Part shown: positions 26,213 to 62,230 of the stretch, piece by piece
How the letters are laid out: each line of letters opens with the position of its first letter
Numbering within the stretch: the stretch's first letter is position 1
From: Takakia lepidozioides
Taxonomy: Eukaryota; Plantae; Bryophyta
NCBI GenBank assembly: GCA_030704615.1
Contig: CM060734.1
Location: 52,018,001-52,082,000 of the forward strand
Direction of reading: 5' to 3'
Length of the DNA stretch: 64,000 nt
Notes under the pieces: model-generated
Databases searched by the model: none
Told to the model about the DNA's origin: nothing
The model's input: the letters and a program-made list of their open reading frames with translations, nothing else
Made by a program: the position numbers and the translations under genes

Positions 26213-26833
26213 CAAGTCTCCATCCAGGCCTGAAAAAGCTTTCTAGTCCAACATGAGTACACAAAGGGGCAAATGCTCCTGAGTCAACAAGTCCAGTGGA
26301 AGAAAATGCATGGAACTGTACAAAGTTTCTCTACACGGCTGCGTCCTGGGGTACTACAGCTGTCGGGTAAGTTTCCTGGGATTCTACCACACATGGTGAA
26401 AGTGCTTGTTGCACATCAGTGTTCTATGTATTGTCCAACAATCATGGAAACCAGGGTATAATGGATGTCTCAGGCTGTACAAGAACCCAGTGATATTGCG
26501 GGCAGCTTATGGCGGTGTGGACCTCCTGTTGCATCATCCTCCACCTCGGCACCTGATGCACATCCTCTTTGCTGCATGCCTACTCCAGGCTCAGCATTGG
26601 CAACAGTTCATTGTTACCCCTCCAATACCAACCTGTCTTTCGAGCCCTATAGCCTGGCTGATTCGTTGCATTTCGCCATAAACCTTCACAAATTCCTGGT
26701 GAATTTGTTGAAACAACAATGGTGGGGGCTGACTGAATTCAGGTCTGATTCCTGGTGCCTCACCCCCTTACTTCTCTGGTGCCTCACCTCCTGGATTTTC
26801 CATCCTACAAGGCTCCAACCTCCACCTAACCTC

Positions 26834-27236
26834 GCTCTGATACGAAAGGTTACAGTCCTGTCTTATTATAGTAAAATGGTCTCCACATTAATACTGTATG
26901 AGCAAGCTAACCACCCAACCTAGGGTCCTCAACTTGCCACTTGCTAGGGAGTGTTTACCAAGACCAACTGTCTACTTTGTTCTCAGCCCTGCAGGCCCGT
27001 CTCCCTCTCCTCGAATGTCACACCAGGTCCTCCTAAATACTCCCCAAGGACTCCCCCCCTTGCTCTAAGGATACCCTTTGGTATTTCCTTGCTATCCAAA
27101 GGCCTAACACTTGGCCTTTGCCATTCTGACTGTTTCTTTCTCTTGCTTAGCCATAAGTCTCTTCAGCTTCCGTTATGGCTTTCTGTCTTCAGCCTTGCTT
27201 AGCCCTAACCTAGGCATACTAACCTAGTCTGTGACA
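26834..27236 (-). mobile_element. LTR copy 2 (5' LTR) with tRNA-iMet-type PBS
   Basis: Inverted copy of 24504-24893. On the minus strand it is followed by TCGTATCAGAGC (26845-26834), one mismatch from TGGTATCAGAGC. Confidence 0.8.
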
Positions 27237-38006: not shown

Positions 38007-39351
38007 GTGAGATGTCTCTCTTGCCCTCTGATTGTTGTAAGCGCAAGAGGTGATTAATCAGACAAATGATTTACTGTTCGCTGAATTATTGTTTTCACTT
38101 GTCTGAATCTGAATTACGTTCCAGCCCGCACAGCAGATTCTCAGTTTTCCTAATCGGATCGGCCTCAGCTTGGTGCAAGGTACCATGTGCAACCCACACT
38201 TAACCCATAATCTTACGTAGTAGGCGGTGTTTCCAGGGAATGGTGAATGAGCACACTAGCTTTTCATCAAACCTATAACTAGACATGCTTTACAACATTC
38301 TATGTCATGATGGTCACTGAATTCTAACCAGCTTCCAACTATATTAATGCAGGTAAAGTTTGATGAGTTCATAACCAGACATCTTGGTGAGCAGGAAGAC
38401 CCATCCAGGATCAGCATTGCCACAAACCAGTCTCCATGAGAGCAAAGGAAGTGTGTACCAAGGTCCATTGGAGAGGCCCAGGCCTTGGCATTGACCTATT
38501 GTGTAAAACCAAAACCCTCTATGAATTAAGAACTCTCTAGTCTCTGCTTCAAGGAGGCCTCTCTCCCTCCTTTGGGCCAACCCAACACCCTCTCTTCAAT
38601 CTGCTTGTCCTTATTTGTCAGACCATTTAGGAAGGAAATTTGTGCCACCTGAATTGAATCTGTGTCATCTGCTCTTTGTTTAGGTTTGTAGTCGCCAAAG
38701 ATGTGGAGCATAATGTAGTGTCTATAGTGAGGAAGTATTACTCAGATGACAAGAGACGGCGGACATTCGGGATCTAGTGGTGTCTCTTCCTTTGTGACTG
38801 AAGATGTTTTCTCATAGGTCATGGATTGGTAAAGGAGGAATGTCTTCAATTGGATCTCACTGTTTTCTCCCACTAACGTGGCTGGTCTGCGCCGCAAGGT
38901 AACTCCCAACTCTAATTTCTTTTTGTAGATGTGATATTGATTCAGTGTTGTCCGTGGCTGGCATCAACATTTTATCAGAAAAGAGGGAGGGAGAGAGAGT
39001 TCTTTTTTTTGGTTGATAATGGAGTTTTTCCCCTGGACTCCATGAGTGTCTCTGATTGCTAATGTAGGGGTTCACTACAGGTTCGCTATACGCCAGTACA
39101 AAGCATTTTACCTGGGGGAGGTTTGTTTTTGCTGTCAACAATGAAAGGTTGACCTCACAGTTTAGATGTTCCAGTCTTGGAGTGAGCTGCCACTTAGGCA
39201 ATATCTGATCCCTTTAGCCAAGTCATGCCTGCCTTTTAGTTTTGTGAGGAATCAATCTGAAAAAGGCCTCCTATTGCAGGTTTTATAGTGGCAGTGTTTT
39301 TTGGGCTGTCTTACTATTCCTTTTTGCCCAATCAAGGGGGTGATTTGAACG

Positions 39352-40614
39352 ATGACAAGTGACAAAATGTTGTCCGCCATGGGAGAGATCATGCTATTTT
39401 TGCAATTCATGCTTATGGAGGCTCCAGAGCTATTTGGGATCAAGAGATACTCACAAGAGGCTTTACCATCATTCTTGCATGATGTTGGCCTATTCGAGGA
39501 GGAGGATCCAAATATCAACCTCATCGCATGTAGGAGCTCCTTGCAGCGGCTTCTCACAATTATGAAATTCAAGCCAAGAGCTCGTCCATCTTCAGGGATG
39601 TGGGTCAAGCATAGGTCGAGAGCGTGGTTTGAGGACTTTCTTTTACAGTATGACGATGAAAGATGGCTAGATATCATGAAGATGAGCTCAGGCACGTTTG
39701 AGTGGTTGTGCAATACTCTTGCACCAGTTATAAAGATGCAGGATGCCAAGTATCGAAAGAGCTTATCTGTACCTATGAGAGTAGGGGCAGTACTTTACAA
39801 ACTACTATGGGGCGGCCACAACCATTGAAATATCGGAGGGTTTTGGAATCAGTCGTTCAACTTTATACGAGCTTCTTCGACAAGTAGTCCCTGCCATAAT
39901 TTGTCTATTGGGTCACCGTCTGCAATGGCAAGGTGGTGAAACTCTAAAAAGAACCATGCTCGAAAATGAGAGGAGATCAGGGATTCCGAATATTATTGGT
40001 GCAATTGATTGCACACAAATACGAATCAAGGCCCCAAACACTGACATCAAGTTCGACTACAGGAACAGAAATGGATACTATTCTATGGTTCTACAAGGAG
40101 TAGTGGAAGCAGATGCAAAGTTCGTGGACATCTACGTTGGAGAACCCGGAAGCATGAATGATGGTAGGGTGTTGCGGAATTCCCCACTATTCCATCCGGC
40201 TTCTCAAGGAACTCTACTACGTGGTGAGAACGTAATTCTTGAGAATGGGCACCCAATTCCGCCACTCCTCATCGGTGACGCCATTTATCCTGCACTCCCA
40301 TGGCTCATTCCTAGTTACAAGAGGGCTCCCAATGCTCCAGCCCTATCTAGAGCCAAATCAATCATCAATTATCGAAGGCAAGAATCTTCTTAGAAATTGC
40401 TTTTGGACGAATGAAAGGCACATTCAAATAGGTGGGTTGGAGGAGCGAGCTCGACCTTGATTTTCTGCCACAAGTGGTCCATGCCTGTTGCATCTTGTAC
40501 AACATCTTGGTCGATTTCAAGGAGATTGATTTCGAGGACATCTACAATGAAATGGATGCTCTTGCAGCCATCAGGGAGCGAGACAATGTTGCCCACAGTC
40601 AAGAAGCCACATAG
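39352..40614 (+). pseudogene. Harbinger DDE transposase (HARBI1-like)
   Basis: MSSGTFEWLC, IIGAIDCTQIRI, SMVLQGVV, GSMNDGRV, LIGDAIYPALPWL, ACCILYN. One stop and frameshifts. Confidence 0.9.
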
Positions 40615-41139
40615 TTGGTGCTGCTTTGCGGGAGATATTATGCAACCACGTCATTAACACATGAATGAAGAAACCGCAAGTCTGCAAGGTTAGCTCCCCA
40701 ACACCCTACACAACAATTTCAACATGTTGGTGATCAACATTCTAGCATCATGAAAAATGTTCAAAAATTGTGGGGTTTGACATCCATGAAGCAAGGTTTT
40801 CAACAGATGGGTTGCTGAGGTACTAGTGGTAATTTCACATTGCCTCAATGTGGGGGGCCTTGATTGGTGCTTTTAGAATCCATGGCAATGTGGAGCTAAA
40901 TTTCTATGTGGGAGGGGCTGGTTGTTGAAAGGTCCAATATCCATCCACTTAGTTCTCACAAGCATATCTGAAAACCATCTATGCATGTATCTGCCCCAGG
41001 GATTACCAGTGAGGTAAACATGCAAGTAGAGCTGCCACCCAGGGTGTGTAGGGCATAGCCATCCAGGGAGAGGGTGAGATTTAACACCTCCTCCATGGAG
41101 GTGTTAAATCTCGGTCAACAATTAAAAATCGGGCAACGG

Positions 41140-41365
41140 CAGAGAGGTTTTGCAGTTGCCATACGCTCGCGATGGCGGGGAGAGTAGAGAGGTTCTTGCA
41201 GGGTAGGCGCTCGCGATGGCATAGAATGCAGAGGGAGAGTGGAGAGGTTCTTGCAGGGCAGGGGCTCGCGATGGCATAGAGTGCAGAGGGGAGAGTGCAG
41301 AGGTTCTTGCAGGGCAGGCGCTCGTGATGGCGTAGAGTGCAGAGGGGAGAGGCTCTTGCAGGCAG
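41140..41365 (+). repeat. ~55-bp minisatellite upstream of the Myb gene
   Basis: GAGAGGTTCTTGCAGGGCAGGCGCTCGCGATGGCATAGAGTGCAGAGGG units, about 4 copies. Confidence 0.85.
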
Positions 41366-41412
41366 TGTGTGTCTCATTTTTTTAATCCAGAGATTGCAAG
41401 AGAGAGTGTAGC

Positions 41413-42386
41413 ATGTCTTCCACAGACACCACAGGCACCACAGGCGGTGGTGATGGCTTTAGGGCTGGTGAGGTTGAATTGCAAAGCTCCAAGACTCCTA
41501 GAAAAAGAGCTAGAGATAGAAATTGGAGTGAGACAGAAGTGCGCATCCTGGCTACCACTAAGCGGCAGGAATGGGAGGAGTGGAAGGGTTCTATCGCACG
41601 CGGCAACATGAATTGCGATAAAGTCAAGTGGGAGAGGATTGTGTTGTCATTGGAGAGACATGGTGTGCTTGGAAGGGATGCAACAAGTGGCAGAACCTCT
41701 GTAAGCATTTCAAGGATATTCGGGGCCACCAGCTTCATAGCACAGGTAATGAAGACTACTTCACTATGACCACTGAAGAACGTGGAACTGCATGACTCCC
41801 AAAATCCTTCTCAAAGGATCTTTTTGAGGACATGTCTTTTCTATCAGAGCGAGCTTGCAATGCTCCAAAGGCGACCTCATCAAGCATGAGGGTACCACTG
41901 GTACCAAATCAGCAGCATGTAGATATCAACCCAATTGATGATGTCGGTGTTGGCCCTTTAGTAGCCAACAATTTGGGTTCAGCAAGTCTAGCCTCAGAAA
42001 GCCAAGATGAGCCACATGTTCCTCCTCGGGGTCGACCTCCCAAGCCAGGGCGGGAGAGGTATACCAATTCTTCCCCTATCCCATTCAACAACTCAACCGG
42101 CAAGAAAAAGAAGGGTGTTGTGACCACTGATTTCCTCCAGGCCTTGAAGGAGGGAAATGAAGTCCTTTCCAAAAGCATGGAAGAGGATAGAAAGGAGAGG
42201 ATGGAGAGATTTGGCAAGACTCTTACCCTTCAAACTGAGATGTTCAACTTTGAGAAGCAAAAGGCCCAAGTGGCATTTGAAGCACAACAGGTAGCTTCTA
42301 GCAATCAAAGCGCCATGGTTTCCCATTTTGGAAAACTGGTTGAGCACTTTGGGAAAATGGTAGAAAAGAAGGATGGTGCAGCTTAA
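41413..42386 (+). pseudogene. Harbinger Myb/SANT-like (trihelix) DNA-binding protein
   Basis: RNWSETEVRILA...KWERI N-terminus and C-terminal coiled coil. Frameshift and stop at ~41690-41795. Confidence 0.8.
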
Positions 42387-45759: not shown

Positions 45760-48740
45760 GTCGGGTGACGAGGCCGGGAGTCCCGCATTTCCCATAACCG
45801 CTACATGATGTTGACCGCCGCGTTGACGTCTCAGTTTTCCATGTAGTCCAATAGCAGGCTGTGTTGGGACACAGTCGGACCGCGTATGAGCCGCGACGCC
45901 CAGTCTTTTCGGGGAATCGGCATTGGGGCATGCCCTCCATCCTTTTCGCTGCAACTGCAGCACAGTTGGCTAGTTCGAAACTCGTCAACCATCACCATCT
46001 CGCTTGCCTTCTCCCGTATCCTCTTCTGCAGCTTGGAGGTTGGTGTGCTCTCCGTCCCGGGGCTGTTGTGCGCGAAGAGGCGTCCCCGAAGGCCACCACC
46101 GTTGTCGGGTCATTCGCCGTCACCTCCCTCGCAAACGTCGCGTAGGCCCGTTCCGTCTTTATCCATGTCGCCCACCTCAGCTCCCTCATCCTCTTGTTCA
46201 CCACGTAGAACTCGTTTAGTGCCCAGAGATGTGTCAGCACCGACGCCGCATACAAGCTATACCCCTCTACAGTTGCCACCTTAGCGGAGACGGTGTTGAC
46301 CCTCGAATTGAACTGCGTCACGGCTTCGTTCCTGGCCATCCACCTCTTCGTCAGCTTGGCCCGCCGCCGGTACCCGCACATGGTGTAGAACCGCGCCTTG
46401 CTGCAACGGATCACTTGGAACCGGTCCATTTTGTCCACCCACGACTCGTTCAGTGCGGCCTCTGCTTTGGGCGAGTACACCACTCCCGTGTAGAGGTACT
46501 TTCGGCCCGGGTCGATGGCCACGACTCGTTTCGGCAATGGCACGTGGGTGTGCAGAGTCGGTTTGGGCATCTCCTTTTTCTTGCGTCCTTTCACCTGCGA
46601 GAAAACGAGACCAACGTCCGTTTAAGAAAACGTCAGTCTACAAGATGCAGGTTTTTCCCTCAACTGAAGAGACGACATGTCTGTCCACTCCCAATCAAAC
46701 TACATCAGAAACAGTACTAAACTTTTACTTCACACATTTCCCGCACAAAAGAGAAGCTCTCAGGTATCCAACTCCTTAAATGGGGTCTTTCATCAAAACA
46801 AGGTTGCGGCGCCTGGAGGCTCTCGACCACACATATCTACAGGGAGTATATATGATCATCAACCATTCTGCTGTAGACATCCCCAACAGATCATGTTGCC
46901 ATGTTTCTAACCTTCAGCTAAAACCGATTTCGATTCATGGAAACGTCACAGAACAACTCATCTAAAGCGATGAGCCTCGCTTTCAGGTTCTGCAAAGAGG
47001 GTGGGGATACCGCCTTCCCGCACATGGCCCTTGACATTGCACATAATAAGACGATGCTGGTCGTCCAACAAGTTCACCCGCATTTGCGTCACGAGCCGGT
47101 ACGCCCAATCACTAAAGGCAATGAAAAGCAAACATGGAGAATGAAGCAGTTGTCTTACTCTGGCTGTGACGGCAGGTTGGCATCGGGGCGAGCCCAACAG
47201 CATGCTGACTGCAACCCTGTCAGTTGTTATAAAATTCTGACACTTGAGTCCTTGTCCGGATCGTTCAAACTTCCGGTCGATTTTGAAAAAGCTATTCCAT
47301 CCCCACGCTATCCACAATTAGTAAAACGAAATCAACACAAAGGGCCATATGTCATCAATGGACATGACGACGAGGGGAGCACGAGTGACCTCCCGTCGTT
47401 CCGCACGTGCGGCAGCCACGTGCTGACCGCTGCTTCATCCTCTAGTACCCCTCATCCTCTCCCCCTCCCTGCGAAAGAAAACAAGTAGGATTCGGGGGCA
47501 AACTTACAATCTCCACAGTTTGTCGTCACTCGTGCTTTGATTATTCTGCACTATCAGCGTTGCCTTTGTCGCAAACGACCACAGGATGGTAATGGTGATG
47601 GCTAATTGGACTGGCCTGACGCGCTTTTGTGATAGGAGTGGGAAGAGCCGGAGCTTGCGCTCGCCGGATGGAGGAACCGCCGTCTCAGGCGTATGCAATT
47701 CTGATGGCCTTTGGTGGCAAACCGTTGTTGATGGCCGGTTCCCGGAGCACCGTTTCCTAGAGAAATCAGTCTCACCAGTTTCGGACTCGGCTGGACGTTT
47801 CCTGCTGGCCCGTGGAATGCCGACTTCCGTCGGACTGGACAAATTTGGGACTGTCTTCGATTTTTTGTCGTTTCTTTCCCAATAATTTCCGTCTTGATAA
47901 TTTGCTACAATCCGCTGACATCAATGAAGCATCGTTTGGCGGCAAATTTGGAAATTAATCCACATCGTCGGATTCGGTGGGACATCTCCGTGTACAATGT
48001 CGTTCTAGTATCGTTGAATTCGGTGTTTCTGTCCGACGTTGGCGTGAATGCATCGGAGTCGCTGAAGTCCATGGGATCCGCCGTCTGACATTCCTGCGCT
48101 TTGCATTTTTTGATCGCGATGGTGGTGTGCCCGGTGACATTCGGCGTCAATGTGCTATCCTCACTGTCGTTGCGTAGTATGAACGTGTGACAACTCGACG
48201 ATTGCAAATATGTGCACTAATTCCATGAACTAATTCTATGCGCCGTCCATGGAGCACCTCGGAGGACAACGACGTTGTTTCTTATGATGCCGTTTCGAGG
48301 ATAGTCGGGGTATTTATAAACAACGTTGTTTTGGAAGGAGTGATCATCATCGTTTACAAATCGTCGGATGCCTCCACCTCGAATGTATCGGTGGACGGTG
48401 GATCGTTGGATGCACACGGTCGTTCCCCAGCTCCTGATTTTGTCGTTGGCTGAACACATCGTTCACTTTTTTTCGTTATTAATAATATATTTATTTTTAG
48501 AAATATTATTCGAATATATATATATATTTTCCTTTGCTCCATGGGTAGGGTGAAGCATTTATAATAAATATTTGTTTTATTGTTTTATATAATAAAATGT
48601 TAAATTTATTTCAATGGTTTACCTTTCCCGACCCGGTGCACGACGTAGTTCATCGGATCCATGTATTCCCGTTGGTGTAGCCGACGATAGGGTGGAATGT
48701 CTCGTCGTGCAGAGGCGTTTCGTCAATTGAATACCTATGT
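45760..48740 (-). pseudogene. Fanzor (eukaryotic TnpB homologue, Fanzor1-like) RNA-guided nuclease, intron-containing, frameshifted
   Basis: RuvC-I VVAIDPGRK (~46520), VVAFGDAS, RuvC-II VMVDEFRTSQLCCSC (~45980), CPNTAC, RuvC-III DVNAAVNI (~45820). Upstream WNSFF...FITTDRVAVSMLL and RLFPLL...LAITITILW segments. Splice acceptor at ~46595. The 5' extent is uncertain. Confidence 0.8.
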
Positions 48741-49406
48741 GTTCAGCCGTTGAGTTATTCGCTCAATGTCACTATTTCTGGATATTTGGGATGGTTTGTA
48801 CATGGTCTCCTCCTCGTCCTCTCCGTTCTGCTGGAGGTAGCCTGGTGCAATTGACAGAGGGTCACATGTGTAAGACATTTGCTGAACTATTTCAAACTTC
48901 AGGTTCTTTTTACATTGAAGGCGGGGATGGGATTCATCTACCAGGCTATGAATTGTTTTCAAATTGTTGTAAGGCCTAATTCCGGGGGTGATTTGCATTC
49001 CAAGAGCTGGATTTTTACCATATACGGCGCTGCGCTGTAGCGATTGGGATATCAAACTTGTCAAGTTAAATAAGCACAGTGTGAAAACAGCTAGAATAAA
49101 ACTAGTTATTTGTATTTAACACTTGGATTTAGGTCAAGTGTTAAATCAGGTGTCAAGTTTAGTTTGACACCTGGTCCGTCTTATCTTCACGAGAGCGGCA
49201 GTCGCGCGGCTCATCTTTCTCGAGTTGAGCCTGCGCGACCGAGCTCCTGCATGTGTTTAGATTTGAGTGTGCGTATGTAGGGGTACAGGTTGTTGTGGGG
49301 TGGAGTCCCCATAGCTTGGGGTGCCCCTGGCTCGACTACTATTTTCTAAGAGTGATGGTTTGGTTTTCATGTTTTGTGTCACAGTGTGTTCGATGGATTT
49401 CTATCA

Positions 49407-49419
49407 CTCGAGAAAGATG
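49407..49419 (+). promoter_or_regulatory. Self-priming (Tf1-type) primer binding site
   Basis: CTCGAGAAAGATG is the exact reverse complement of LTR positions 49212-49224. No TGG tRNA-type PBS is present. Confidence 0.75.
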
Positions 49420-49499
49420 CTCTCTTACCTGTGAGTGCAAGGTAGGAGTTGAGGGTTAGCACTTGCAAGATTACCTGCGTATAAGTAGTGATTAGTTTG

Positions 49500-49640
49500 A
49501 GAAGCATATCATTGAATGTGACCACAAGATTCAGCGTGCCCTGAAACGCCTGGAGGATGACGATGCCAGAGCCGCCATTGTTATTGCAGTCGCTGAAGCT
49601 ACCAAGTCACTAGAGGCTTTGGGGTACACAAGGAGATACT
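49500..49640 (+). pseudogene. Captured LUC7-like (U1 snRNP-associated) fragment
   Basis: IIECDHKIQRALKRLEDDDARAAIVIAVAEAT resembles the plant LUC7 coiled-coil segment (recalled similarity). Confidence 0.6.
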
Positions 49641-50157
49641 TAAAAATGCAGCAGCAAATGCTAGTTGGCACCTATGCATGATCCTTGAAGCTGGATGATC
49701 GTTTCACCAGTAAGCCTATAGAGGAGCCTGCTGTTGCAATTGATTTTTGTATCGGGGTTGGTCTTGGACCAAAATTTAGCTTCAGCTTCTTTGTCAATCA
49801 TTTGCTTTGATCATGCAAGAGCGCCATGCAGCGGGTTAAGGGGCAGGGCTATGGAGCAGAAAAGCGGCATCCTCTTCGCAATGCGCAGAGGATGGAGTTC
49901 CGTGTATATGGTTGCTATGGAGCCTCGCCAACAGCAGAACTTTGCGCTTTCCGTTCTTGGGGTTGCTGCATTGTATGCGCCCTAGGTTCCGGGCTTGGAA
50001 TTGTCTTCTGACCAATTCAGCAGAAACGAACGACGAACGTATTCTGGCCTGATTCCCTACAGTAAGCAGGCGATATATAGCTCAACGCCATCAACGAGTA
50101 CACCCAAGGAGGTTGTACACCACAACAAGTGCCGTCAGAATCTTGTCACCAAAGGAT

Positions 50158-50851
50158 TCAGGCCAAGCAGCATACGATGGCCACCTCACGGCCAGGCTTG
50201 GAACGGCTCTTACCATACCATATGAGGAACTTGTCGAAGTAGAGGAATAAACTTTCACAGACATGTCTGGCGAGATTTGAAAGAGTAGTTTTCTTGCTTT
50301 GATGTTGTTTCATGTCCTCTGGTTCATGGAGCTCATGACAACAAAAGTCGAGCGGCAGCGGACGTACTGGGCGCCGAGCAGAAAGGATGGTCAGGGGGAC
50401 GACTGTTTCCCTTGCCCAGCAGCTAAAGTCGTAAAGATTGAAGTCCACCATGTTCAGAAATCCATTTTCGAGCTGCTACCATGGATGCTTCATTGGGTTG
50501 GGATCCTGACGCTTTTAAGGCCACATAACACTTGACGGTGGTGCTAAGGTCACCTGCAGGAGCTTCATGATAAGTGTCCCAGGATCCGTCAGTTCTTTGC
50601 AGGCTCCGAATGCAACGCACGACTTTTTCTTTCTTTGGGTCATCTGTAACGCCCAGGAAATGCATAGCCAGAATCCACTCCGCTTCCATTGTACAGCTTG
50701 ATTCGACCTGGCCCGCCCAATAGTCCTCTGGATTCTGCTTACGGAAACTCCAGTCAATTGCATCGTTGATGACCTGATCAAGCGGTGTTGCATCTATGGA
50801 CTCGAATGCTCCCATACACCCACTTCCCTGCAGTAAGCAGTTCACATTCAC
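50158..50851 (-). pseudogene. shc: Captured squalene-hopene cyclase N-terminal fragment with internal deletion
   Basis: QNPEDYWAGQVESSCTMEAEWILAMHFLG, QRTDGSW (QW repeat), GDLSTTVKCYVALK, AARKWISEHGGL, then YDFSCWARETVVPLTILSARRPVRP. The DxDD active-site half is absent. Confidence 0.88.
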
Positions 50852-51557
50852 AAAAGTGCTAGAGTTTCAGCTGCAGGATGGAGACGACGGGTTTGGGAAC
50901 GGCGGAGCCGAGCTACGCTGGGGATAGACGGGCGATTCAGGAGCCAGGGCTTTCTCCCCCGTAACTGGAATGGGCCGGGGACCCGCAAGCTCCAGCACAA
51001 AGTCCAGTGCTTCCCGCTGGTAATCCTCCTCAGTGATTTATCGTTAGCCACCAAGGCCTCGAGCAGACTGTGAGTGACCCCTCGCCTGTACATGGCGTCC
51101 ATAAACATGTCCATAAACATGTCTTTCCTCCCCCTCTCTTGGTGCGCAAGCCTGCAAGCAATCACGGAATCCACTCTCTTTCACAACAAGACACTACTGA
51201 GTGCCACAATTCCCTCTCTCTCTCTCTCTCTCACTCTCGGTATGCAGAAGACTGGAGCAAGGTGCGAATTATAGGGCACGTGGCCAGGGAACCTAGGAAA
51301 GAACGTAGGGAACTGGGAACCAGTTACCAGATAGTTTGGGTAACTTTAAATTTTTAAATTTGAAAACCTTCAAAAAAAAAAAACAGGGCATTTTGATCTA
51401 ATTTAAATGATGTAAAGCCAAATTGGTCATATCTTTGTCAAATGAACTCTGTTTGACACAGTTTTTGAGGGGATAGCTGTAGAAAGGGGAAATCTACCTA
51501 TCTAGACCTGGTTTCTGTTTTTGGGACTCTGCTAAAAATCTATGGAATTTTTAGAGT

Positions 51558-52394
51558 GTGAGTGTGCCACGAAATATCCACAATCCTGTTTCTAGAACCT
51601 GTGCTGGCCTATATGAGAGACAAACCTGTGGATGTACTCCTTGCATGGCTGGGGGAAATGAGGACGTAATTGAAGGGCAGGTCTCTTCTCTTAGCCTGTG
51701 CACACAAGGGGACAGGATTTATGTTTCCCAAGGAACTCAGACTGATTTGAGTGGAGAACAGTTGGACGAGTTGATTGCATACTGGGAGTCAGGCATTAGC
51801 AGTAGACAACAGACTGCTGTAGTTGGCATTGAGGGCCTCAATATCGCCTTGGACAGTCAGAACTCTGTTGGAGCCAGCAGTTCTGCAGCTGTAGGTGAAA
51901 TACCAAAGTGGGTGAAAGCTAGGCTTGGAACACAGCCAAAGACAGCACCGGGGACCAAGGTGTTCAGCCACAAGGCCGTGGTGTACTGGAGCAGAGGAGC
52001 AGGAGCTGCACAAGTTTGTGCAATTAGACAGTGTTGCAGTCGGACACGCTCTGCACAAGGCAACCACGAGCGGGGGTTCATTAGCGAGGACAAGTTTGTT
52101 CTGTTTGAAGGCGATGCAGTCATTCGCAATGAAGACACCCGCAACCGTCTCAAAGCTTTCGAGTTGAGAGACTATCAGACCCTACCTTTGTTTTCTTTAG
52201 TGTTCAGTGAGCGGGAGATAGCAGAGTGTTGCTTTGTCTCTACCTGGCAGAAAGAGGAGGAGGGTTGGTTAGAGCGAGCTACTGTAGCTTGGGACAAGGT
52301 TAGTGGCAGGTTTCTGGACATAGATATACCTCCTACACCTTACCATCAAGCAGAGCGAGGTACTTTGAGAGAAGTCTGGAAGTTGATAGCATAG
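51558..52394 (+). CDS. Unknown open reading frame upstream of gag (278 codons)
   Basis: Uninterrupted ORF inside the element. No recognised motif. Confidence 0.35.
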   Translation: MSVPRNIHNPVSRTCAGLYERQTCGCTPCMAGGNEDVIEGQVSSLSLCTQGDRIYVSQGTQTDLSGEQLDELIAYWESGISSRQQTAVVGIEGLNIALDSQNSVGASSSAAVGEIPKWVKARLGTQPKTAPGTKVFSHKAVVYWSRGAGAAQVCAIRQCCSRTRSAQGNHERGFISEDKFVLFEGDAVIRNEDTRNRLKAFELRDYQTLPLFSLVFSEREIAECCFVSTWQKEEEGWLERATVAWDKVSGRFLDIDIPPTPYHQAERGTLREVWKLIA

Positions 52395-53093
52395 ATCAGG
52401 GTTAGATCTTGCTTGGGCGGGCTTCTATTCTTCCCCTCCATCTCTGTACTATTTTCATTACCTTGTACTTGTAGTTGCCAAAGCCTCTCTTGGTGGAGGC
52501 CAGTCAGTCCGGGGTCTTGGGCTGGGATATTCTGCAGGATCAACGTTGCTGCTGGATTTTGGTGTGGGGGTGTTGATGTTTTGATTTCTTGTGTTTGGAT
52601 CCCCCCAACACCTGCATGCTTGACTGTGCGCCATGTTGGTTTTGTGTGGGCGCTTGCTTTCATAGGGATTAGGCCGGATTTGATCACCGGTCAATCCTAG
52701 AGTATGCTGTCGGTGGTGAGGCTGGAGTGATGACCAGCAAGACCACCAGTGTTTCTTCTATGGTGAGGCTGGGTTGATGACCAGCCAACCATAGGAGTTC
52801 TTGCGGTGGATGCAGGTGCAGGTGCCCTGAGCCATTGGGATATGACCCTTAGACTGCAACAGGTGCCCACCCGTGTCACTATTAGATTAGTACTAGAGCC
52901 TTATAGTGTCACTGGAGGAGGTGCACATTGTGAGTGTCATTACGGAGTTACCCAAGGGTTTTGAGGGGAGTACGGCTACAGGCAGTAACAGTGAGAGTGG
53001 GTTCACAAGACGAGGTATTCGGTTCAGACCACCTTCACCGCCCCCTCAATTACTGTAGAGTCAGACACAGGCTCGGAGGCTTCATCAACAGGT

Positions 53094-56000
53094 GTGCACT
53101 TTCATTCGCCATTGTTGTGGGACGACATGGAGGAGATGTATGGAGCTACCAAGGGGCCTCGTAGGTACTCTGGAGCTGTGGGCACAATCGAGTTGGATGA
53201 CTTTATCCAGGAGTTCGACAGCTGGTGTGATTTGCAGCAGATGCGCAATCCACATCTATTCACCCCATTCATGGCGTGGAAGGGACTGTTCCAGCATTTG
53301 GAAGGCCCGCCTATGGACGATTACCACGAGTTCAGGCGAGGACATGAAGCAGAGATTGAGGAGTGGAGGATGTATTGGTCACCTGACTACATCTCCATTA
53401 CTCGAGGCATGACGCGACCAGTAGCTGCATCAGTACCAATAGCTCCCACTGCCAGCACTAGTAGTGGAGCAGGTAGTGCTGGTACTTCTGCAGGTGGTAC
53501 CAGTTCAGAAGGTGCTACTACTCCTCCTGCCACAGCTACAACACATGTGCCTAGATTCAACCCGGTGGTGGAGTTCTTCCAGGAGTTGCGGAGGAACTAC
53601 CAAGGTGTACGGACAGAGAAGCTACGAAGTTTGCAAGACTTCCAGCGCAAACCCAGTGAGAGCCTGCGAGAGGCGTACACTCGTATGAGGCGCTTGATAA
53701 GTGTGACCCAAGGGGTTACTGAAGCTCAGGCAATCCAGTTTTGGTATGGAATTCTGGACAAGGAGCTCAAGAGAAGGGTGCGAGATGCAACCCTGTTACA
53801 AGCAGCCCAACCCACATTAGCAGATGTGTTTCTGCTGGCTGAGCGGATTGAGCTCAACATGGTGGAGGACGAGTTGTTACAATTGGATTTGGCAAGGACA
53901 TGCCTGTACGGGGCACAGCTGTCAGCCCACAAGCACAAGGGACTGCCCAACAGCGTGGTCAGGGGGGCAAGGTTGCCCAGCCCAAGTTCCATGGAGCTTA
54001 CAGGGGGCCTCAGGTGCAAAGGCCCGTGGCATCTTTTGCAGGCCAACAGCAACCAGGGGTGATATGTTGGACATGTGGAGGACCCCATGTCAAGAGAGAT
54101 TGCCCAGAGAGTGGCAGAAGGCCGGCACAAGCACAGCCTGCACAGTTGCAGTGTGGGCATTGTGGCAATATGGGCATGGAGATGCCCAGTGTTATGACTT
54201 GCATCCTGAGTTGCGCCCAGGCCAGTTCCAAGGGAACAATGGTGGCCGGGGGCGAGGTGGACCAGCCCAGAGAGGACGAGGTGGTCGGGCACGAGGTGCA
54301 GGCCAAGGGCAAGCTCAACATGGCCAAGGACGCGGAGGTCAGGGCGTTGATCAAGGCATGGCCAACCGGCTTCAGCAGCTAGAGCAGAGGCTCGCTGCCA
54401 TGGCTATAGCTCAGGCGGTACCGGCTCCCAGGCGGGATGGTCCACCTCCTGCTCCTGAGGGAGGAGATATGGGAGGCATGGGATTTATGTGCGGAGCAGC
54501 ACTACCACTAGAGCAGGTGGAGTCTGCTGCAGCCGTGACTCGAGGAGCAGCACGAGTTCCTGAGCCACGAGGTGCAGAGGTGGAATTGGATCCACAGCGT
54601 GGGGAGGCAAGCCGTCAGGCAAGGCTTCCTCAGTCATTCACATTGGCGGAGACTGTGTCAACGCCATCCATGGCACCTAGTTCTCGCCCGACTGTTACCG
54701 AGGCGGAGGTTACTATGCCATTGGGGAGAGCTACACGTGCAGCATTGACTCCTGCTGCCAAGGCTAGTGCGGCCGGTGTGTTATTGGGGGCAGCCACCTC
54801 TGTGTGTCAGGCCCCACTGTTCTCGGCAACAATGATTGCGACGCCGGGGGTGAGACCAGCTGCAGTGTTCAGACTAGCAGCAACACTCTGTGAGAGTGGG
54901 GAGGTCACTTCATCTTCTGCGGAGTTAGTGGAAGGTGTAGTGGCAGAGGGATCCTCGGATTTGAGGGTCAAGACTGCCACGGCAGCGCCCTGGCAAGCTG
55001 CAGCTACTAGGTTGACGGAGCTGCCAGCTAGGCCAGCCATTGAGCGCGCCATGGTGACACCTGGAGTTGTCTTGTTAGACAACCAGGGAGGCATTTTCAC
55101 TTTGAGTGGACCGGCAGGCAAGAAGTACCGGCCACTGCGGGTCTTGTTGGACTCAGGAGCTCAGCCACTGATGTTGGGCAGAGCTGCTATTGCAGGTTTG
55201 GGCCTCATGGAGGCGGATATGGAGCCTTGTCCTTTCCAGATACAGACATCTCTGGGAGGATCAGAGCAGGCTCGCGGCATGACACGACATCAGTTGGCTA
55301 TTAGACTGCAGCCGGATCATCCTGTAGATGGCTCAGTGATGCGAGCCAAGGCCATTGTGACAGACGCGGTCTCTTACGATGTCCTCGTTGGTGGGGCAGT
55401 GTTATACCCCATGGGCTTCACCCTGGATTTCTGGGAGGAGTCAGCATCCTACAGGCCTGGATGGCAGTCAGGGGATGGTCGCCGTGCACAGCTCCCTGTG
55501 ACATTCATTGGGGGTATTGCAGCTGCCCAGCGGGGCAAGATGCCAACACTAGCCGCCTTCACAGCTGCCGTTAGTTGGCCTGGAGAGTTGCTGGAAGGCA
55601 ATGTCCATGCAGAGGATGTGCCACCTCCAGCAGAGCAGGATGACATGCATGGTACGGCGGAGTTGCCTGCCATGGTTGCTCACACCCCGTTGTGGGGTAC
55701 GAGCAAAGATTTGCAGCAAGCTGCTGATGGACGGGTGCAACAAGCTTGGGAAGAAGCTTTTGTACCGTCAGGAGAGGAGGAGAGTGCGGTGATTGCACCA
55801 GGGCCACCTCAGTTGTCGCCATTGGACACCACACCTCTTGTATGGCAGCGGCCGGATGAAGGCATTTGCCTTCTGGACTTGTTTGGCGGGATCAGCACCG
55901 GATTGGCTGCTGTGCTACAGGCAGGTGTGCGGGTAAGGCGTTACCTGTATGTGGAGAGGGATGAGACTGCACGACGCGTCTCACTGCGCCATGTGGCTCA

Positions 56001-57111
56001 GTTGGTACAGCAGTACCCTGACTTGTTGCCTGTGTCTGCAGTTCGTGGATACCAACAAGCCTTGCCAGCAGACATTTCCTTGTTGGGGGCGCAAGATTTG
56101 GAGCAGGTTGGCTCCATTGATCTGATAGTGGCAGGTTGGCCCTGCCAAGGGCATTCATCAGCCGGGCATGGCAATGGATTGCGAGACTCGAGGACGGGTC
56201 TGTTTTGGGAGATGGTGCGGATTTTGCGTTGCTTGCAGCTTCATCAAGCTGTATCTCCAGCATACATCTTGGAGAATGTACCACTGATGGGTGATTCTCG
56301 GGCCAGGGTGATGGCCAGTGTGCATCAAGTCCGGTCGTGGCTTGGGTCAGCAGTGTTGCTGGATGCAGCTGCAGTGGGGTCACGGGCTCATCGTCCACGA
56401 CTATGGTGGACTAACTTGATGCCACCCGCACTGCTCAAGCGTGCATTTGATGGGGTGCAGCGGCCAGCACACCTCACCGTGGATGGCATTTTGGACACAG
56501 GAAGGCAGTCTCAACGTGTGAGACACGATGACCGTTCGCCTTTGGCAGTGGTCAACAGGGTGGGTCAACCACGAGCAGCATTACCTACACTGCTCAGCTT
56601 CCCAGGATCCCATGCTTTTCGGGATGGTGGACCTGGCCTCCTGTGGGATGCTCAGTTGCAGCAGTTAGTGGAGCCTAATGCCGACGAGCGAGAGCGGGCT
56701 ATGGGGTTTTCCACTGGGACCACGGCGGTGCCTTCTCTTTCTGAGGCATCACGTCGTCAGGTGTTGGGGCAAGCAATGGATCTCAATTGCTTGACCTGGA
56801 TTGTCAGCTTGGCTATGGCTGAGCAACGTAGAGTGCGGAGTGCACTTCCCTTGATGGTCTCTCTGCCTACCGAGACGGTACAGGCAGCGAGTGGGGGCGA
56901 GCCGGTGAGGACCACGAGGTGTAGACATCCATGGCACATGTGGGAGGTGCTCGAGGTTCAGAGGGAGTTGGCAGCGAAGGCAGCTGTGATGGATGAGGTT
57001 GGGGATTCTTCTCGGGATGAGGAGGTTCTCAATGATGAGATGATGGGGCAGGATGAGGCCTTGTCATTGACTGAGCAGGAAGGGGGTACTGCTCAAGAGG
57101 TTGCAGCATAG
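53094..57111 (+). CDS. Gag (two zinc knuckles), aspartic protease and C5 cytosine DNA methyltransferase; two single-base frameshifts (~53870, ~54170)
   Basis: FQRKPSESLREAYTRM, CWTCGGPHVKRDC, CGHCG..GH...C, VLLDSGAQ. DNMT motifs at 55861-56800: LDLFGGISTG, YVERD, AGWPCQG, ILENV, HRPRLWW, ERERAMGF, VLGQAM. Confidence 0.9.
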
Positions 57112-60100
57112 CAACCACGGGACGCGTCCTCTACCTCTAAGCCCACTGGACTTAAGGTTGCAGTTACGGAGGACAATTGGGAGCCTGACATTGGACCCAT
57201 TGTCACCGGAGGAGAGAGACGACGTATACGGCGGTTCCTGAGGGCTTACAGGAATTGCTTTGCCTTCAGTTTGAAGGACTTGGGAGCACTGAAGGGTCAA
57301 GAGATCCGTATTGAGTTGGCCACTGACACGCCAATCTTTCGGAGACCCTATAGATACAGTGACATGGAGAGGTCTTTGATTCAGATGAGGACTCAAGATC
57401 TCTGGGAGGCAGGTTTGGTGGAGCTCTCTGGTGGAGAGTATGCTTCAGCCACAGTGATGCCAGCTAAGAAGGATGTCTATGGCAATTGGACGGAGAGACG
57501 TATGTGCGGTGATTACCGGCCTGTAAATCGTCAGACCAAGTCCGATAGGTATGCCATGCCAACACCAGAGGAGATCTTTGATGCCATTGGGCATTCCAAG
57601 GTCTTTAGCACGTTGGATTTACGATCCGGATATCACCAGTTGCCGATCAAGGAGGCGGATAAGCAAAAGACGGCATTCTGGGGGATCAATGAGCACGGGA
57701 AGGATTGCCTATACCAGTGGCGGTTCTTACCATTTGGGCTTAAAAACGCTCCCGCTGAGTTTCAAAGAGTCATGGACAGGATTCTAGCAGGGGTGGAGTT
57801 TGCTCGGTGCTACATAGATGACATCATCATCTTTAGTGCTACGGTGGAGGAGCATGAGAGACACCTTCAGGGGGTATTTGAGCGCTTGAGGACGCACGGA
57901 TTGAAGTTACATCCGGGCAAGTGCAAGTTTTTCCACAACCAGATTGAGTATCTGGGTCACATGATATATCCTGGAGGATTGGGGGTACAGCAGACTAAGG
58001 TAGAGTCCATTGCACAGGTTCCACGCCCCACGGATGTGAGCCGAGTTCGAGCTTTCATGGGGTTAGCAAACTATTACAGACGGTTTGTTAAGGGATTTAG
58101 TGCCATTGCAAAGGCTCTAACCAAGCTGACCAAGGTGGACCAGGAGTGGCAGTGGGAAGATGAGCAAGAACAAGCTTTTCAAGAGCTCAAGGCGAGGTTG
58201 ACCTCGGCGCCCATCTTGAGACGACCTATCAGGGGGCGTCCTTTTCAGCTGCATACAGATTGGAGCATGCTGGGGCTTGGAGCGGTGCTCACACAGGTGG
58301 ATGATGAGGGAAGAGAGTTCGTAGTGGCTTATGCTAGCCGCTCGAACAATGCTGCAGAGTCTAAGTATAGCTCATATGAGGGAGAATGCTTAGCTGCAGT
58401 GTGGGCCGTGGCACACTTCAGGTGCTATCTATACGGCAATCTCTTCACCCTTGTCACGGATCACCAACCACTCAAGTGGTTGATGGAGTCAGACAAGCTT
58501 ACGGGGAAGCTTGCACGGTGGGCACTCATCCTTCAAGAGTATGACTTTCAGGTGGTGCATCGACCGGGTTTGGTCAATCGAAATGCAGATGGGTTGAGTC
58601 GCAATCCATGCACGAGCCAGCAGGATGACACTGGAGCTCGGTGGCATGGTGAGACGGACGAGGAGATGGTGCCCGGATGGCATGCATCTGCATTTCTGTG
58701 TATCTTGGCAGCGGAAGGCCAGGTTGGACCTACAACAGGGATGACTGTAGATCAAGTGTCTGAGGACCCTGAGGCCAGCAATGAGCAGGGTGGCGCCAAA
58801 GATATACATGAGGATTCAGTTGTGTTGGACTACCTCCGCAGTGGAGACACGGCAGCCACTATGACTGCCAAGGAGAGGGATCGGATCCTACAACGAGCCA
58901 AGAGGTTCAGGTGGGAGGGGACACACCTGCTCCGAGTGTGGGAGGATGGTCGAGTGAGGATTGTGCCTCACCCAACACAGCGGGCACGGTTAGTGCGGCA
59001 TGCCCATGAGGAGTTGGGGCATTTTGGGGTGCGACGCACTCATAGTCTACTGCAGGGGCAGTATTGGTGGCGTGGTATGCACACAGAGGTGCAACAATTT
59101 GTGGCTAGGTGCATGGTGTGTGACAGGGTGCGTGCTTCATTCAACGCCCCTACTCCACAATTGCACCCTCTTCCGATCATGGGATTGGGCTACAGGTGGA
59201 GTCTTGACTTCGCAGGGCCGTTGCCACTGACCATGCGCCACAACAAGTACGTGTTGGTGATGGTGGAGCACTTCTCCAAGTGGATTGAATTGGTTCCATT
59301 GCCTGATAAGGCTAGTGAGGGAGCTGCGTATGCATTCCTGGATTGTGTGCTTAGCCGATTCGGTGCTCCAGCTGAGGTACTCACGGACCAAGGGAGAGAG
59401 TTCTTGGGGGAGTTTCAGGCTTTGTGTGACAAGGCCTTGATAGACCACCGCACCACTTCTCGGGATCATCCTGAAGCTGATGGCTTGGCAGAGAGAGTTG
59501 TTCAGACAGTGAAGAGGGGTTTGCGCAAGTATGGCTTGCAGAAGGGACACCTAGGAGATTGGGACCTTCAGTTACCCTGGTTAGCCATGGGCTACAGGTT
59601 CAGCAAGCAAGCATCACTTGCCTCTTTCTCACCATACTTTCTTCTCTTTGGCCGAGAGCCGGATTTGCCTACATCCATTCGCAGAGAAGCTGCTACAGTT
59701 CTTAACCTTGACGATCCGGACGTGTGGGCACGTGCATGTGAGCAGCGTGCAGAGTTGTTCAAGAGAGTCATGCCCATGGCTTTCGAGAACCTTGCCATTG
59801 CACAACACCGTGATACGTTGAGGTATGCTACCATACGTGGTGGGGGCTATCGTCCTGGGGTTCGGAGATTCAACCCTGGTGACTATGTCTATCTGCAGCA
59901 GACTGCTCCTACGACCCTGGATGTGACTGCAGGACGTGTTATTTTGAGGGTTCGAGAGGTCTTGCCCTCAGGCGTCTTGGTCTTGGAGGGTCGGGATGGC
60001 ATCACTTGGAAGGACCATGTGCGTAATTGTGCGCCATGCCACCTTCCGAATGTCGATGGCAGGATTGACCCAAACCTGGCAGTGGTATCTGCAGGTTTGA

Positions 60101-60246
60101 GGTGCAAGTTGTGTGGGTCTGCTAAAGGGGCAGCCACCATGCTGGTATGTGATCGGTGCTCTAGAGGTTGGCATATGGGATGCTTGACTCCACCTCTTGA
60201 GATGGTTCCAGATGGGGATTGGTTATGTCCACAATGCATTGGATAG
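57112..60246 (+). CDS. Pol: reverse transcriptase, RNase H, integrase and C-terminal PHD finger; same frame as the upstream ORF after one TAG
   Basis: RMCGDYRPVN, LPFGLKNAP, YIDDII, LHTDWS, TDHQPL, HEELGH...CMVC, WSLDFAG/LTDQG/GLAER. PHD CKLC...CDRC...H..C...W.CPQC. Intact frame. Confidence 0.96.
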   Translation, partial: QPRDASSTSKPTGLKVAVTEDNWEPDIGPIVTGGERRRIRRFLRAYRNCFAFSLKDLGALKGQEIRIELATDTPIFRRPYRYSDMERSLIQMRTQDLWEAGLVELSGGEYASATVMPAKKDVYGNWTERRMCGDYRPVNRQTKSDRYAMPTPEEIFDAIGHSKVFSTLDLRSGYHQLPIKEADKQKTAFWGINEHGKDCLYQWRFLPFGLKNAPAEFQRVMDRILAGVEFARCYIDDIIIFSATVEEHERHLQGVFERLRTHGLKLHPGKCKFFHNQIEYLGHMIYPGGLGVQQTKVESIAQVPRPTDVSRVRAFMGLANYYRRFVKGFSAIAKALTKLTKVDQEWQWEDEQEQAFQELKARLTSAPILRRPIRGRPFQLHTDWSMLGLGAVLTQVDDEGREFVVAYASRSNNAAESKYSSYEGECLAAVWAVAHFRCYLYGNLFTLVTDHQPLKWLMESDKLTGKLARWALILQEYDFQVVHRPGLVNRNADGLSRNPCTSQQDDTGARWHGETDEEMVPGWHASAFLCILAAEGQVGPTTGMTVDQVSEDPEASNEQGGAKDIHEDSVVLDYLRSGDTAATMTAKERDRILQRAKRFRWEGTHLLRVWEDGRVRIVPHPTQRARLVRHAHEELGHFGVRRTHSLLQGQYWWRGMHTEVQQFVARCMVCDRVRASFNAPTPQLHPLPIMGLGYRWSLDFAGPLPLTMRHNKYVLVMVEHFSKWIELVPLPDKASEGAAYAFLDCVLSRFGAPAEVLTDQGREFLGEFQALCDKALIDHRTTSRDHPEADGLAERVVQTVKRGLRKYGLQKGHLGDWDLQLPWLAMGYRFSKQASLASFSPYFLLFGREPDLPTSIRREAATVLNLDDPDVWARACEQRAELFKRVMPMAFENLAIAQHRDTLRYATIRGGGYRPGVRRFNPGDYVYLQQTAPTTLDVTAGRVILRVREVLPSGVLVLEGRDGITWKDHVRNCAPCHLPNVDGRIDPNLAVVSAGLRCKLCGSAKGAATMLVCDRCSRGWHMGCLTPPLEMVPDGDWLCPQCIG

Positions 60247-62230
60247 TGGGAGTGGATACAACCATGGGAGACTAACAAGCAACGCAAGGCCCAGCTACTA
60301 GGAGACCTTGAACACACGAGGTCCTGGCTCAAGTTCACAGATTGCAAGATGGCGACTAACGATGGGGCTACTCTTGTACCCGGCCTCTTGGTCTATAGAG
60401 TTTGAGTACAATAGGGACAGTGATAGAGGACTTAGTACGGCTGTGGCTATTACATCTTGTAGCTATCTGGAGGTAGAGGGACCTATCCACCAGCTAGGGG
60501 GGCGATTGTGGCAGACTACTTTATTGTGCATATATGTATGGTGTGGTTTGGACAGCGATGTAGTTGTGTAGCGATATGTATGCGCACGACAGCTGTCAAG
60601 TTAAATAAGCACAGTGTGAAAACAGCTAGAATAAAACTAGTTATTTGTATTTAACACTTGGATTTAGGTCAAGTGTTAAATCAGGTGTCAAGTTTAGTTT
60701 GACACCTGGTCCGTCTTATCTTCACGAGAGCGGCAGTCGCGCGGCTCATCTTTCTCGAGTTGAGCCTGCGCGACCGAGCTCCTGCATGTGTTTAGATTTG
60801 AGTGTGCGTATGTAGGGGTACAGGTTGTTGTGGGGTGGAGTCCCCATAGCTTGGGGTGCCCCTGGCTCGACTACTATTTTCTAAGAGTGATGGTTTGGTT
60901 TTCATGTTTTGTGTCACAGTGTGTTCGATGGATTTCTATCATTGTGGCAGACTACTTTATTGTGCATATATGTATGGTGTGGTTTGGACAGCGATGTAGT
61001 TGTGTAGCGATATGTATGCGCACGACAAACTGCATTGTGTGCTTCTTGCACAGTTTTTTCAAGGTTAATTTGTTCCAATTCAATTAGTCTATGGTCAAGA
61101 GGCGATCTTGTCTATTGAATTTGAAATCCCTTTTGTCTGTATCGCTTTTGAAGAACGATTGGGGCTGAAGCTCCTTTCAGTGCCCCGCTTTGAAAATCGG
61201 TTGAATTGGATGAAATCTGACACTGTGCACTCCAGACGATTGAAATCAGTGAACCGCATTGCAAGGACTAGCCTGGAACCTAAATCGTCTGAATCCCATG
61301 ACCTAGTTTTACTCTACGACAGTCGTCTTCCAAAATTTCCTAGCAAACGTTTTCTTTAAAAAAAGATCGAAAATGCGTTGGCTTGGTCATTGTCGTGTTG
61401 TTCAAGCTAATAATCATTCCGAGACAGGATGGACGGAACGAAGATGAGTATGGTGGGGGGGGGGGGGACGCTTGAAGAGATAGTAGCGGCTAGTGGACAA
61501 CAGTCCACTGTTCGCATGTTGATAGTGGCTCTTCTGGCATGTTATTGTACACATGTTGTTCTCGTTAAGCCTTGTTTTACTGCAGGTATGAGTGAGGGAG
61601 CGATAGATGTGAAGCAACGAGCAGTTCTGCTGACGATTGTGCAGAGAGAGAGAGAGAGAGAGTCACAATGGTGCGTCCAAAGATCACCAGTGGTCATGAT
61701 ACGGAGGTGTGGAGTAGGTTGTCTGGCAATTTACTGGGCGAATTGCTTCTATGTCGCTTAGGGATGGTGTGCAATCGGTGGAAATCGTTGCCATCAATTG
61801 CGTTTTTTTTATAAAAAATTTAAATTTAATGGTTTTTTTTTCCCCCTCCTTTCCCGTTTGTCTGCAACCAACTCATTCTCCATCACGTCGTCCTTATATG
61901 TTGAAAATGGAACTTGAAGGATTTTCCAAGCTGCCAAACTCATGTAGACAATGCATACTAATGAAACGCACACTAATACGTTGCGCAATCATCATGTAGA
62001 CAATGAATGCACAGGAAACACGTCGTATGCATCCAATATCAATATTGAAATGCTGACTCAATTCCACAGTTTGGTTGCCTATACACATACAAAGTAGATT
62101 ATACAAAGTGTTAACTTCCGCTTCTACTGTATGTCGTGTAAATGATCCATTTTCTTGTCCCTTTGTTGCCTTTATACCCCTGTGATCCGTCCTAACCGCC
62201 TGTGAGCTAACTACCTTGACTCTAACCGTT

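Follow-up and report, generated by a model that had tools for sequence, protein, structure and literature searches.

A land-plant Gypsy-type retrotransposon with an intact DNMT3-like domain, a conserved amber stop and permuted repeats

Introduction

Retrotransposons that carry a DNA methyltransferase (DNMT) have been described in streptophytes and dinoflagellates, cases that are restated in PMC12344493. In KnitGypsy-Dnmt3 of Klebsormidium nitens (de Mendoza et al. 2018), Gypsy domains are combined with DIRS-like repeats, and methylation of the element's cDNA was proposed; a related retrotransposon Dnmt3, that of SymbioDIRS-Dnmt3, methylates CG de novo in yeast (PMC5890265). Why retrotransposons should carry their own silencing enzyme has been an open question since 2018, the sole Gypsy case having given no activity in yeast. 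Here we analyse a stretch of 64,000 nucleotides from the bryophyte Takakia lepidozioides (GenBank assembly GCA_030704615.1, contig CM060734.1, positions 52,018,001 to 52,082,000, forward strand), referred to below as the window, which contains an 11,969-bp Gypsy-type retrotransposon (49,059-61,027) bounded by copies of AACT. The element is a recent insertion and belongs to a known kind; a wider host range and three replication features are what we did not find in print. Judging from its sequence, we incline towards the view that its intact DNMT3-like enzyme is packaged in the virus-like particle and methylates newly made cDNA.

By the published description, the window element shares with KnitGypsy-Dnmt3 the Gypsy domain set, a Dnmt3-related domain within the polyprotein and a DIRS-like layout, together with an unrearranged methyltransferase and purifying selection (Ka/Ks under 0.2 for KnitGypsy; PMC5890265). 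It differs in its land-plant host and in a conserved amber stop between DNMT and reverse transcriptase (RT), whereas in KnitGypsy-Dnmt3 the two share an open reading frame (ORF) according to the paper's review file (PMC5890265), as they do in 14 loci of the window element's sister clade. The available text of that paper makes no mention of a PHD finger, self-priming, a target duplication or the repeat junction described below, and it reads KnitGypsy-Dnmt3 as an acquisition of the K. nitens lineage (PMC5890265), whereas relatives of the window element span bryophytes, Closterium and chlorophytes. The A-coding-B-A-B layout and a Dnmt3 in Pol are also shared with SymbioDIRS-Dnmt3 and PAT/Ngaro-type elements (PMC5890265), but these use a tyrosine recombinase, whereas the window element has a DDE integrase, a Ty3-like RT and a 4-bp target duplication.

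The literature searched, with most subscription journals and Repbase outside its scope, contained no report of a land-plant or chlorophyte range, a leaky stop, self-priming or internal-junction integration for such elements, and no Gypsy element with split repeats beyond that of PMC5890265. DNMT-bearing elements in bryophytes are likewise unmentioned in the available text of PMC6453930, PMC10952607, PMC8616336, PMC11244446 and PMC6317226.

Results

An intact DNMT3-like domain in a Gypsy polyprotein

The element encodes, in order, gag with two zinc knuckles, protease, DNMT, an in-frame TAG, RT, RNase H, integrase and a PHD finger; its coding regions and repeats lie on the forward strand unless stated otherwise. 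The DNMT domain (55,846-56,820) falls within a 1,096-codon frame (53,821-57,111), in frame downstream of an aspartic protease (55,050-55,500; LLDSGA at about 55,150) that was recognized by sequence and whose aligned region is Pfam Asp_protease_2 in relatives P0018 and P0082. Past the stop, 57,112-60,246 encodes RT, RNase H, an integrase with H2C2 and rve domains, and a C-terminal PHD finger (60,103-60,237), all matched in Pfam (RVT_1, RT_RNaseH, Integrase_H2C2, rve and PHD). The best PDB match to this part is Ty3 Gag-Pol (E=5e-95). The order protease, RT, RNase H, integrase, the Ty3-like RT and the DDE integrase are those of Ty3/Gypsy elements, and the 4-bp target duplication lies within their range of 4-6 bp; one complete long terminal repeat (LTR) per end, with a primer-binding site behind the first and a purine tract ahead of the second, was not found, the integrated form being permuted, with two split repeats and a polypurine tract (PPT) in the order A…PPT-B-A-B. 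We rejected a DIRS, PAT or Ngaro identity, as rve and H2C2 are present and no tyrosine recombinase was matched in the ORFs scanned, and a chromovirus identity, as the integrase ends in a PHD finger and not a chromodomain.

Pfam, PDB sequence matches, a structural model and motif content identify the methyltransferase as a DNMT3-like C5 cytosine enzyme, in agreement with a preliminary description of this DNA. PF00145 (DNA_methylase) matches frame residues 751-860 (E=1e-12; 48.6 bits against a cut-off of 22), and the closest solved enzymes in a PDB sequence search are DNMT3A, B and C. A PDB profile search placed DNMT3A at E=5e-22, the next non-DNMT3 entry (4onj) at 5e-10 and M.HhaI at 7e-9, with DNMT2 ranking last. 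An AlphaFold model built from an 11-row alignment (predicted local distance difference test, pLDDT, 86.8) overlays DNMT3A/B over the full length (Foldseek E=2e-19; Z 28.5, root-mean-square deviation 2.5 Å), compared with a Z of 24.5 for the best bacterial entry. The motifs stand in the standard order: I (F13), II (E37), IV (P99 C100, with the catalytic Cys codon at 56,143-56,145), VI (E143 N144), VIII (R183 R185), IX and X. A search of the ESM Atlas returned generic C5 methylase clusters, and viral contigs yielded only partial phage-type methyltransferases, 25-50% identical across parts of the domain, which we used solely as a tree outgroup.

The preliminary description had also reported a full motif set lying in frame between protease and RT and free of lesions. 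This stands for the domain itself, which contains no stop or frameshift, but not for its surroundings, where the TAG at 57,109 precedes RT and gag is broken near 53,870 and 54,170. That description did not cover the stop in frame and its conservation, the split arrangement of the repeats, the site for self-priming, the PHD finger of the integrase or the broken gag.

DRM methyltransferases are marked by a rearranged motif order (VI-X before I-V) and UBA domains. In the element the motifs run from I to X and the Pfam scan gave no UBA match, and a DRM identity was rejected. With host PpDNMT3, as far as described in PMC6453930, the element shares a DNMT3-type catalytic domain in I-X order; it differs from host plant DNMT3 and DRM in having neither DUF3444, introns nor the DRM-type rearrangement, and in being embedded in a polyprotein. 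The DNMT is a real, intact, DNMT3-like domain under selection; the role proposed for it below is an inference.

Purifying selection and host range

Conservation was counted in 195 near-full-length relatives taken from 292 fetched proteins. The catalytic Cys is kept in 188, the motif VI Glu in 193 and the two motif VIII Arg residues in 188 and 191. Across 11 pairs, the ratio of nonsynonymous to synonymous substitution (dN/dS) in the DNMT was 0.12, 0.11, 0.09 and 0.09 in four unsaturated pairs of intact relatives, similar to the protease, and 0.06-0.21 in four near-saturated pairs with the window; it was undefined in two saturated pairs. Purifying selection, at a dN/dS of about 0.1, is thus shown to act on the DNMT, with one pair of decayed copies (0.75) pointing the other way. 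Relaxed selection on the catalytic motifs, which by the preliminary description would refute its reading, was not found. DNMT and RT distances correlate over 128 elements (rho 0.55; 0 of 999 permutations).

Close relatives (up to 76%) occur in Marchantia, Calypogeia and Sphagnum, by name Marchantia polymorpha, M. paleacea, Calypogeia fissa, Sphagnum fallax and S. troendelagicum. Named algal relatives come from Closterium, Monoraphidium, Haematococcus, Cymbomonas and Hariotina, with a further protein labelled Chrzof1, which we read as Chromochloris; none of the named relatives in the protein searches was from a seed plant or from Klebsormidium. In a quick DNMT tree (67 rows thinned from the 195, holding element and viral-contig rows only), the window groups with liverwort and moss elements (12 rows, support 100), in keeping with the land-plant setting supposed earlier, and Closterium elements fall in the same tree. 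In chlorophyte-type elements the DNMT sits between RNase H and integrase; the DNMT and RT trees each place these elements on a separate branch, and the order RT, RNase H, DNMT, integrase, PHD is seen in 64 of the 292 fetched proteins. Green-algal P0100, P0121, P0138, P0145 and P0087, together with unnamed proteins, have this second order with a PHD finger.

Among representatives at 50% identity, a DNMT profile that includes some flanking columns matched 611 clusters at E<1e-30. A Copia-type polyprotein (RVT_2), P0153 (2,301 aa), gave a weak match to the DNMT profile (E=1.7e-12, 22% identity) and no Pfam methylase match, and may represent a separate capture.

Full-length frames running from Gag through protease to DNMT are present in M. 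polymorpha (for example Mp_4g09160, Mp_Vg00370 and Mp_5g06330), where they are currently annotated as hypothetical genes. Since the family sits in this species, for which methylomes and mutants exist, the question of why an element carries such an enzyme can now be tested in a land plant. Gene counts of host DNMT3 in bryophytes and algae can also be confounded by copies carried on elements.

A conserved amber stop between DNMT and RT

The TAG at 57,109-57,111 splits Gag, protease and DNMT from RT, RNase H, integrase and PHD. Its context, TAG-CAA-CCA (57,109-57,117), fits the readthrough motif UAG-CAR-YYA (PMC3159437). The exact motif, as in tobamovirus-type readthrough (PMC3159437), is found in the window and in four related loci; here, however, the stop follows a protease and a DNMT in a retrotransposon, and readthrough is predicted.

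Related loci were drawn from metagenomes, as the best 80 of 311 confirmed loci. A moss-like family contributed 32 loci aligned at the homologous stop site; as members of a single family, in part assembled twice, they were counted as one lineage. The site reads TAG in 22, TAA in 9 and TAC in 1, and the following codon is CAA in 31. A second lineage, with 49-53% DNMT identity, reads TAG-CAG-TTA (L019, L021) or TAG-CAA-TCA (L028, L067). The linkers between DNMT and RT come in five lengths, yet the frame is kept and intact copies have a single stop each. Stop-bearing elements form one branch of the RT tree (45 rows after thinning; support 92). In a sister clade at about 40%, 14 loci have no stop in the linker, and long single-frame proteins also exist (P0082, P0281). 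The first Met past the stop lies about 85 codons on, within the region aligning to Ty3 RT, and 40 of the 292 fetched proteins consist of Gag, protease and DNMT and end there.

These sequence patterns suggest that the stop is very probably programmed and read through by ribosomes at a low rate. Since ribosomes would mostly halt at the UAG, the DNMT would be made at the level of Gag, and RT and integrase at a far lower level.

In Ogre elements the RT-integrase part is made from spliced or separate RNA. Were the same true here, no readthrough would be needed, and some gene models in Marchantia and Sphagnum (P0006, P0008, P0011, P0041) do join DNMT to RT by a predicted splice. Contig X5 runs gap-free across the stop, but we set it aside, its label as RNA being a guess. 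Nor is the RNA fold 3' of the stop exceptional: in five sequences its z-score ranged from -0.7 to -4.3, ranking 3-5 of 21 windows along the frame, with covariation in 1 of 34 pairs, and we claim no stimulatory stem. The spliced gene models, however, derive from damaged copies, and the linker keeps its frame over five lengths with one stop and CAR next. A skipped linker would collect stops and frame changes, which argues that this one is not skipped, and we regard a spliced or separate RNA as very improbable.

Several observations temper the reading of the stop as a device for supplying DNMT with Gag. In the moss-like family the sequence is TAG-CAA-CCC, which departs from the optimal motif by a single base. 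The protease also precedes the stop; the order protease, DNMT, RT predates it, as seen from the stop-less sister clade and the RT tree; and in chlorophyte relatives the DNMT follows RNase H, at the level of Pol. With the protease in the same position and the domain order in place before the stop arose, production of DNMT at the level of Gag may be no more than a by-product.

Self-priming and permuted repeats

The repeats are arranged as A…B-A-B and not as an ordinary LTR pair. Repeat A1 (49,059-49,406; 348 bp) starts with TGTC and is likely to hold the promoter and R/U5 part of the LTR. At the other end, a polypurine tract (60,492-60,505) adjoins repeat B1 (60,506-60,591; 86 bp, ending in GACA), followed by A2 (60,594-60,941) and B2 (60,942-61,027). 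The A copies are identical at 348 of 348 positions and the B copies at 86 of 86, bearing out the recent insertion proposed from identical repeats in the preliminary description, and the flanking AACT (49,055-49,058 and 61,028-61,031) forms a 4-bp target-site duplication. The complete layout also occurs in L032, L044, L046, L048 and L053; five of the six complete elements, the window's included, have a 4-bp target duplication, the exception being L046, which has a decayed end.

Directly after A1 lies a likely primer-binding site (49,406-49,419) that complements A positions 154-167. The 14-nt exact complement, at 49,212-49,225, is the likely transcript 5' end and self-primer; 0 of 200 shuffles reached 14 nt, and the segment is paired in the fold of 49,212-49,430 (z -4.6). 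A self-complement of 14-17 nt stands at the same place in five of seven elements from three lineages, with differing letters; in L032, L046, L048 and L057 it measures 15-17 nt, with 0 of 200 shuffles each. In four elements of the clade without the stop, TATAAAA lies about 30 nt upstream. The test was negative in L044, where the match fell only elsewhere in A (11 nt), and not significant in L053 (8 nt; 32 of 200 shuffles). The 64-kb window contains no tRNA gene.

Self-priming of the Tf1 type is marked by a primer-binding site that pairs with the 5' end of the element itself (PMC4600332, PMC6317226). The window element shares such a site, in place of one for a tRNA, with Tf1/Sushi and Tcn1 (PMC6317226, PMC4600332); as described there, these are chromoviruses with ordinary LTR pairs, whereas the window element has a PHD end, a DNMT and permuted repeats. 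We therefore consider it probable that the 5' end of the transcript primes its own reverse transcription.

With a self-primer and a purine tract, standard reverse transcription would give a linear cDNA of the form B-A…B-A, of which the genomic A…B-A-B is a circular permutation; the A2/B2 joint unites the primer-defined and tract-defined ends of that cDNA. The B1/A2 junction is palindromic (GACA-GC-TGTC; 60,588-60,597), its two halves are the outer ends of the element, and it is the likely integrase cleavage site. The spacer in GACA-NN-TGTC is two bases long in all 11 junctions read (the window and ten loci). In retroviral chemistry, integrases act on recessed CA ends; staggered cutting of the palindrome after CA, on both strands, would produce such ends. 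The integrase of foamy virus reportedly cuts a palindromic LTR junction (PMC1180852). We propose, with fair though not strong confidence, that the two ends of the linear cDNA, each with B plus A as its true LTR, are joined to one another and that integrase opens the internal GACA-NN-TGTC, which would yield the permuted insertion. If true, a retroviral-type integrase that routinely uses a circle junction would make two-LTR circles, usually deemed dead ends, an obligate step. Because permuted ends would likely defeat LTR finders, the family may have been overlooked.

The proposal has evidence against it. B precedes none of 28 5' A repeats, so that one of two possible cuts is seen; as a two-LTR circle has two equal junctions, a simple circle model fails on this one-sidedness. 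Seven loci (L005, L008, L016, L031, L042, L069 and L075) end in a single B. Both findings would suit an origin without a circle, either by cutting and joining linear cDNA in another order or by genomic rearrangement. A single B at the end could, however, result from recombination between B copies, from circles with one LTR or from assemblies that collapsed. Three lineages share the layout together with the 4-bp duplication and the two-base spacer, and the layout is also described in Klebsormidium (PMC5890265), which excludes chance rearrangement; overall, an origin other than a circle seems rather unlikely. Among the single-B loci, L016 retains a matching 4-bp duplication.

The methyltransferase and the PHD finger

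We return to the reading in which packaged DNMT acts on the element's own DNA. That it methylates the cDNA or circle is, in our estimate, about as likely as not; if it does, the new copy would arrive pre-marked. Two results weigh against this. The CpG observed/expected ratio is 0.43-0.54 in the element against 0.58 in the left part of the window and, being barely under background, leaves no footprint of self-methylation. The KnitGypsy-Dnmt3 enzyme gave no methylation in yeast, a result that its authors call inconclusive (PMC5890265).

These same results speak for the domain being kept for another role, such as RNA methylation, DNA binding in the particle or self-attenuation, the last having been raised in PMC5890265. 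Catalytic motifs are also altered in some relatives, the motif IV Pro being Glu in 47 of the 195 and the motif I Phe being Cys in 36. However, the Cys, the Glu and both Arg residues that serve cytosine flipping and attack are near-invariant, and both sequence and fold lie nearest to DNA enzymes, with DNMT2 the most distant in rank. We regard another role as quite improbable.

PHD fingers that read H3K4me3 carry a Trp; at that position, relatives of the element have Gly in 121 of 137 and Trp in 1. The best PDB matches of the finger are those of CHD4, PHF12, ATXR5 and KDM5, which we take to be readers of unmodified H3 tails. The finger may bind such tails and steer insertion, a step we put forward with some doubt.

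The finger also bears on an alternative target. An active DNMT could act on host chromatin, at the target site or on other copies, with the pre-integration complex or in trans, the PHD serving as the ADD does in animal DNMT3. DNMT and PHD co-occur whichever domain order is used, the chlorophyte-type DNMT directly precedes integrase, and the presumed preference for unmodified H3 would suit such a role. In the window, however, the two domains stand on opposite sides of the stop and protease would separate them, and the K. nitens methylome is ordinary and plant-like, as far as PMC5890265 describes it; we judge action on host chromatin unlikely.

Methylation of the element's own new cDNA remains the reading we prefer. 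Extended to the whole family, it would describe an old Gypsy lineage, ranging from chlorophytes to liverworts and mosses, that replicates differently from textbook LTR elements: its self-primed cDNA, closed to a circle, would be methylated by a DNMT3, supplied at capsid level through a leaky stop in land plants, and integrated by a retroviral-type integrase through its internal palindromic junction. This composite we offer only tentatively.

Other features of the element and the window

The gag region (53,127-54,192; zinc knuckles at 54,065-54,192) matches PF03732 below cut-off (E=8e-4), and its product is about 65% identical to Marchantia Gag. At both sites where the gag of the window copy changes frame, contigs from further copies in this species differ from the window by an indel, and the breaks are therefore features of this copy or of its assembly; a broken gag in this copy also counts against the preferred reading. 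Upstream, a 279-codon open frame (51,555-52,394) of unassigned family had no match to Pfam families, fetched loci or stored proteins; it sits in the high-depth part of the element.

On the reverse strand, 50,158-50,866 holds broken N-terminal fragments of a squalene-hopene cyclase (PF13249, E=4.5e-37 and 4e-16). They form two abutting antisense pieces (Pfam profile positions 1-113 and 145-235) with no intron between them, and an ESM Atlas search returned mostly bacterial cyclase clusters. They probably derive from a processed transcript that the element captured, and few family members have them. Summed contig depth (run X1), which does not equal copy number, was 7,800-42,000 over 51,366-60,818 and 10-16 over 49,722-50,954, which suggests that the family is large and that the cyclase cargo is carried by few of its members.

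The window as a whole is transposon-rich. Other Gypsy remains (protease, RT), a SWIM-finger transposase and a Harbinger-type DDE nuclease occur at 641-1,986, 5,706-7,001 and 39,349-42,386. On the reverse strand, 45,992-47,488 contains broken frames with an IDPG motif resembling that of TnpB/Fanzor, a likeness that neither PDB nor Pfam searches bore out; we rejected a Fanzor-like interpretation of 45,992-47,317, as no PDB match supported it. A fragment of ribosomal protein eS28 lies at about 46,960-47,095. Nested inverted repeats of 356 and 183 bp, 95-96% complementary, occupy 24,537-27,204 and probably represent a foldback element.

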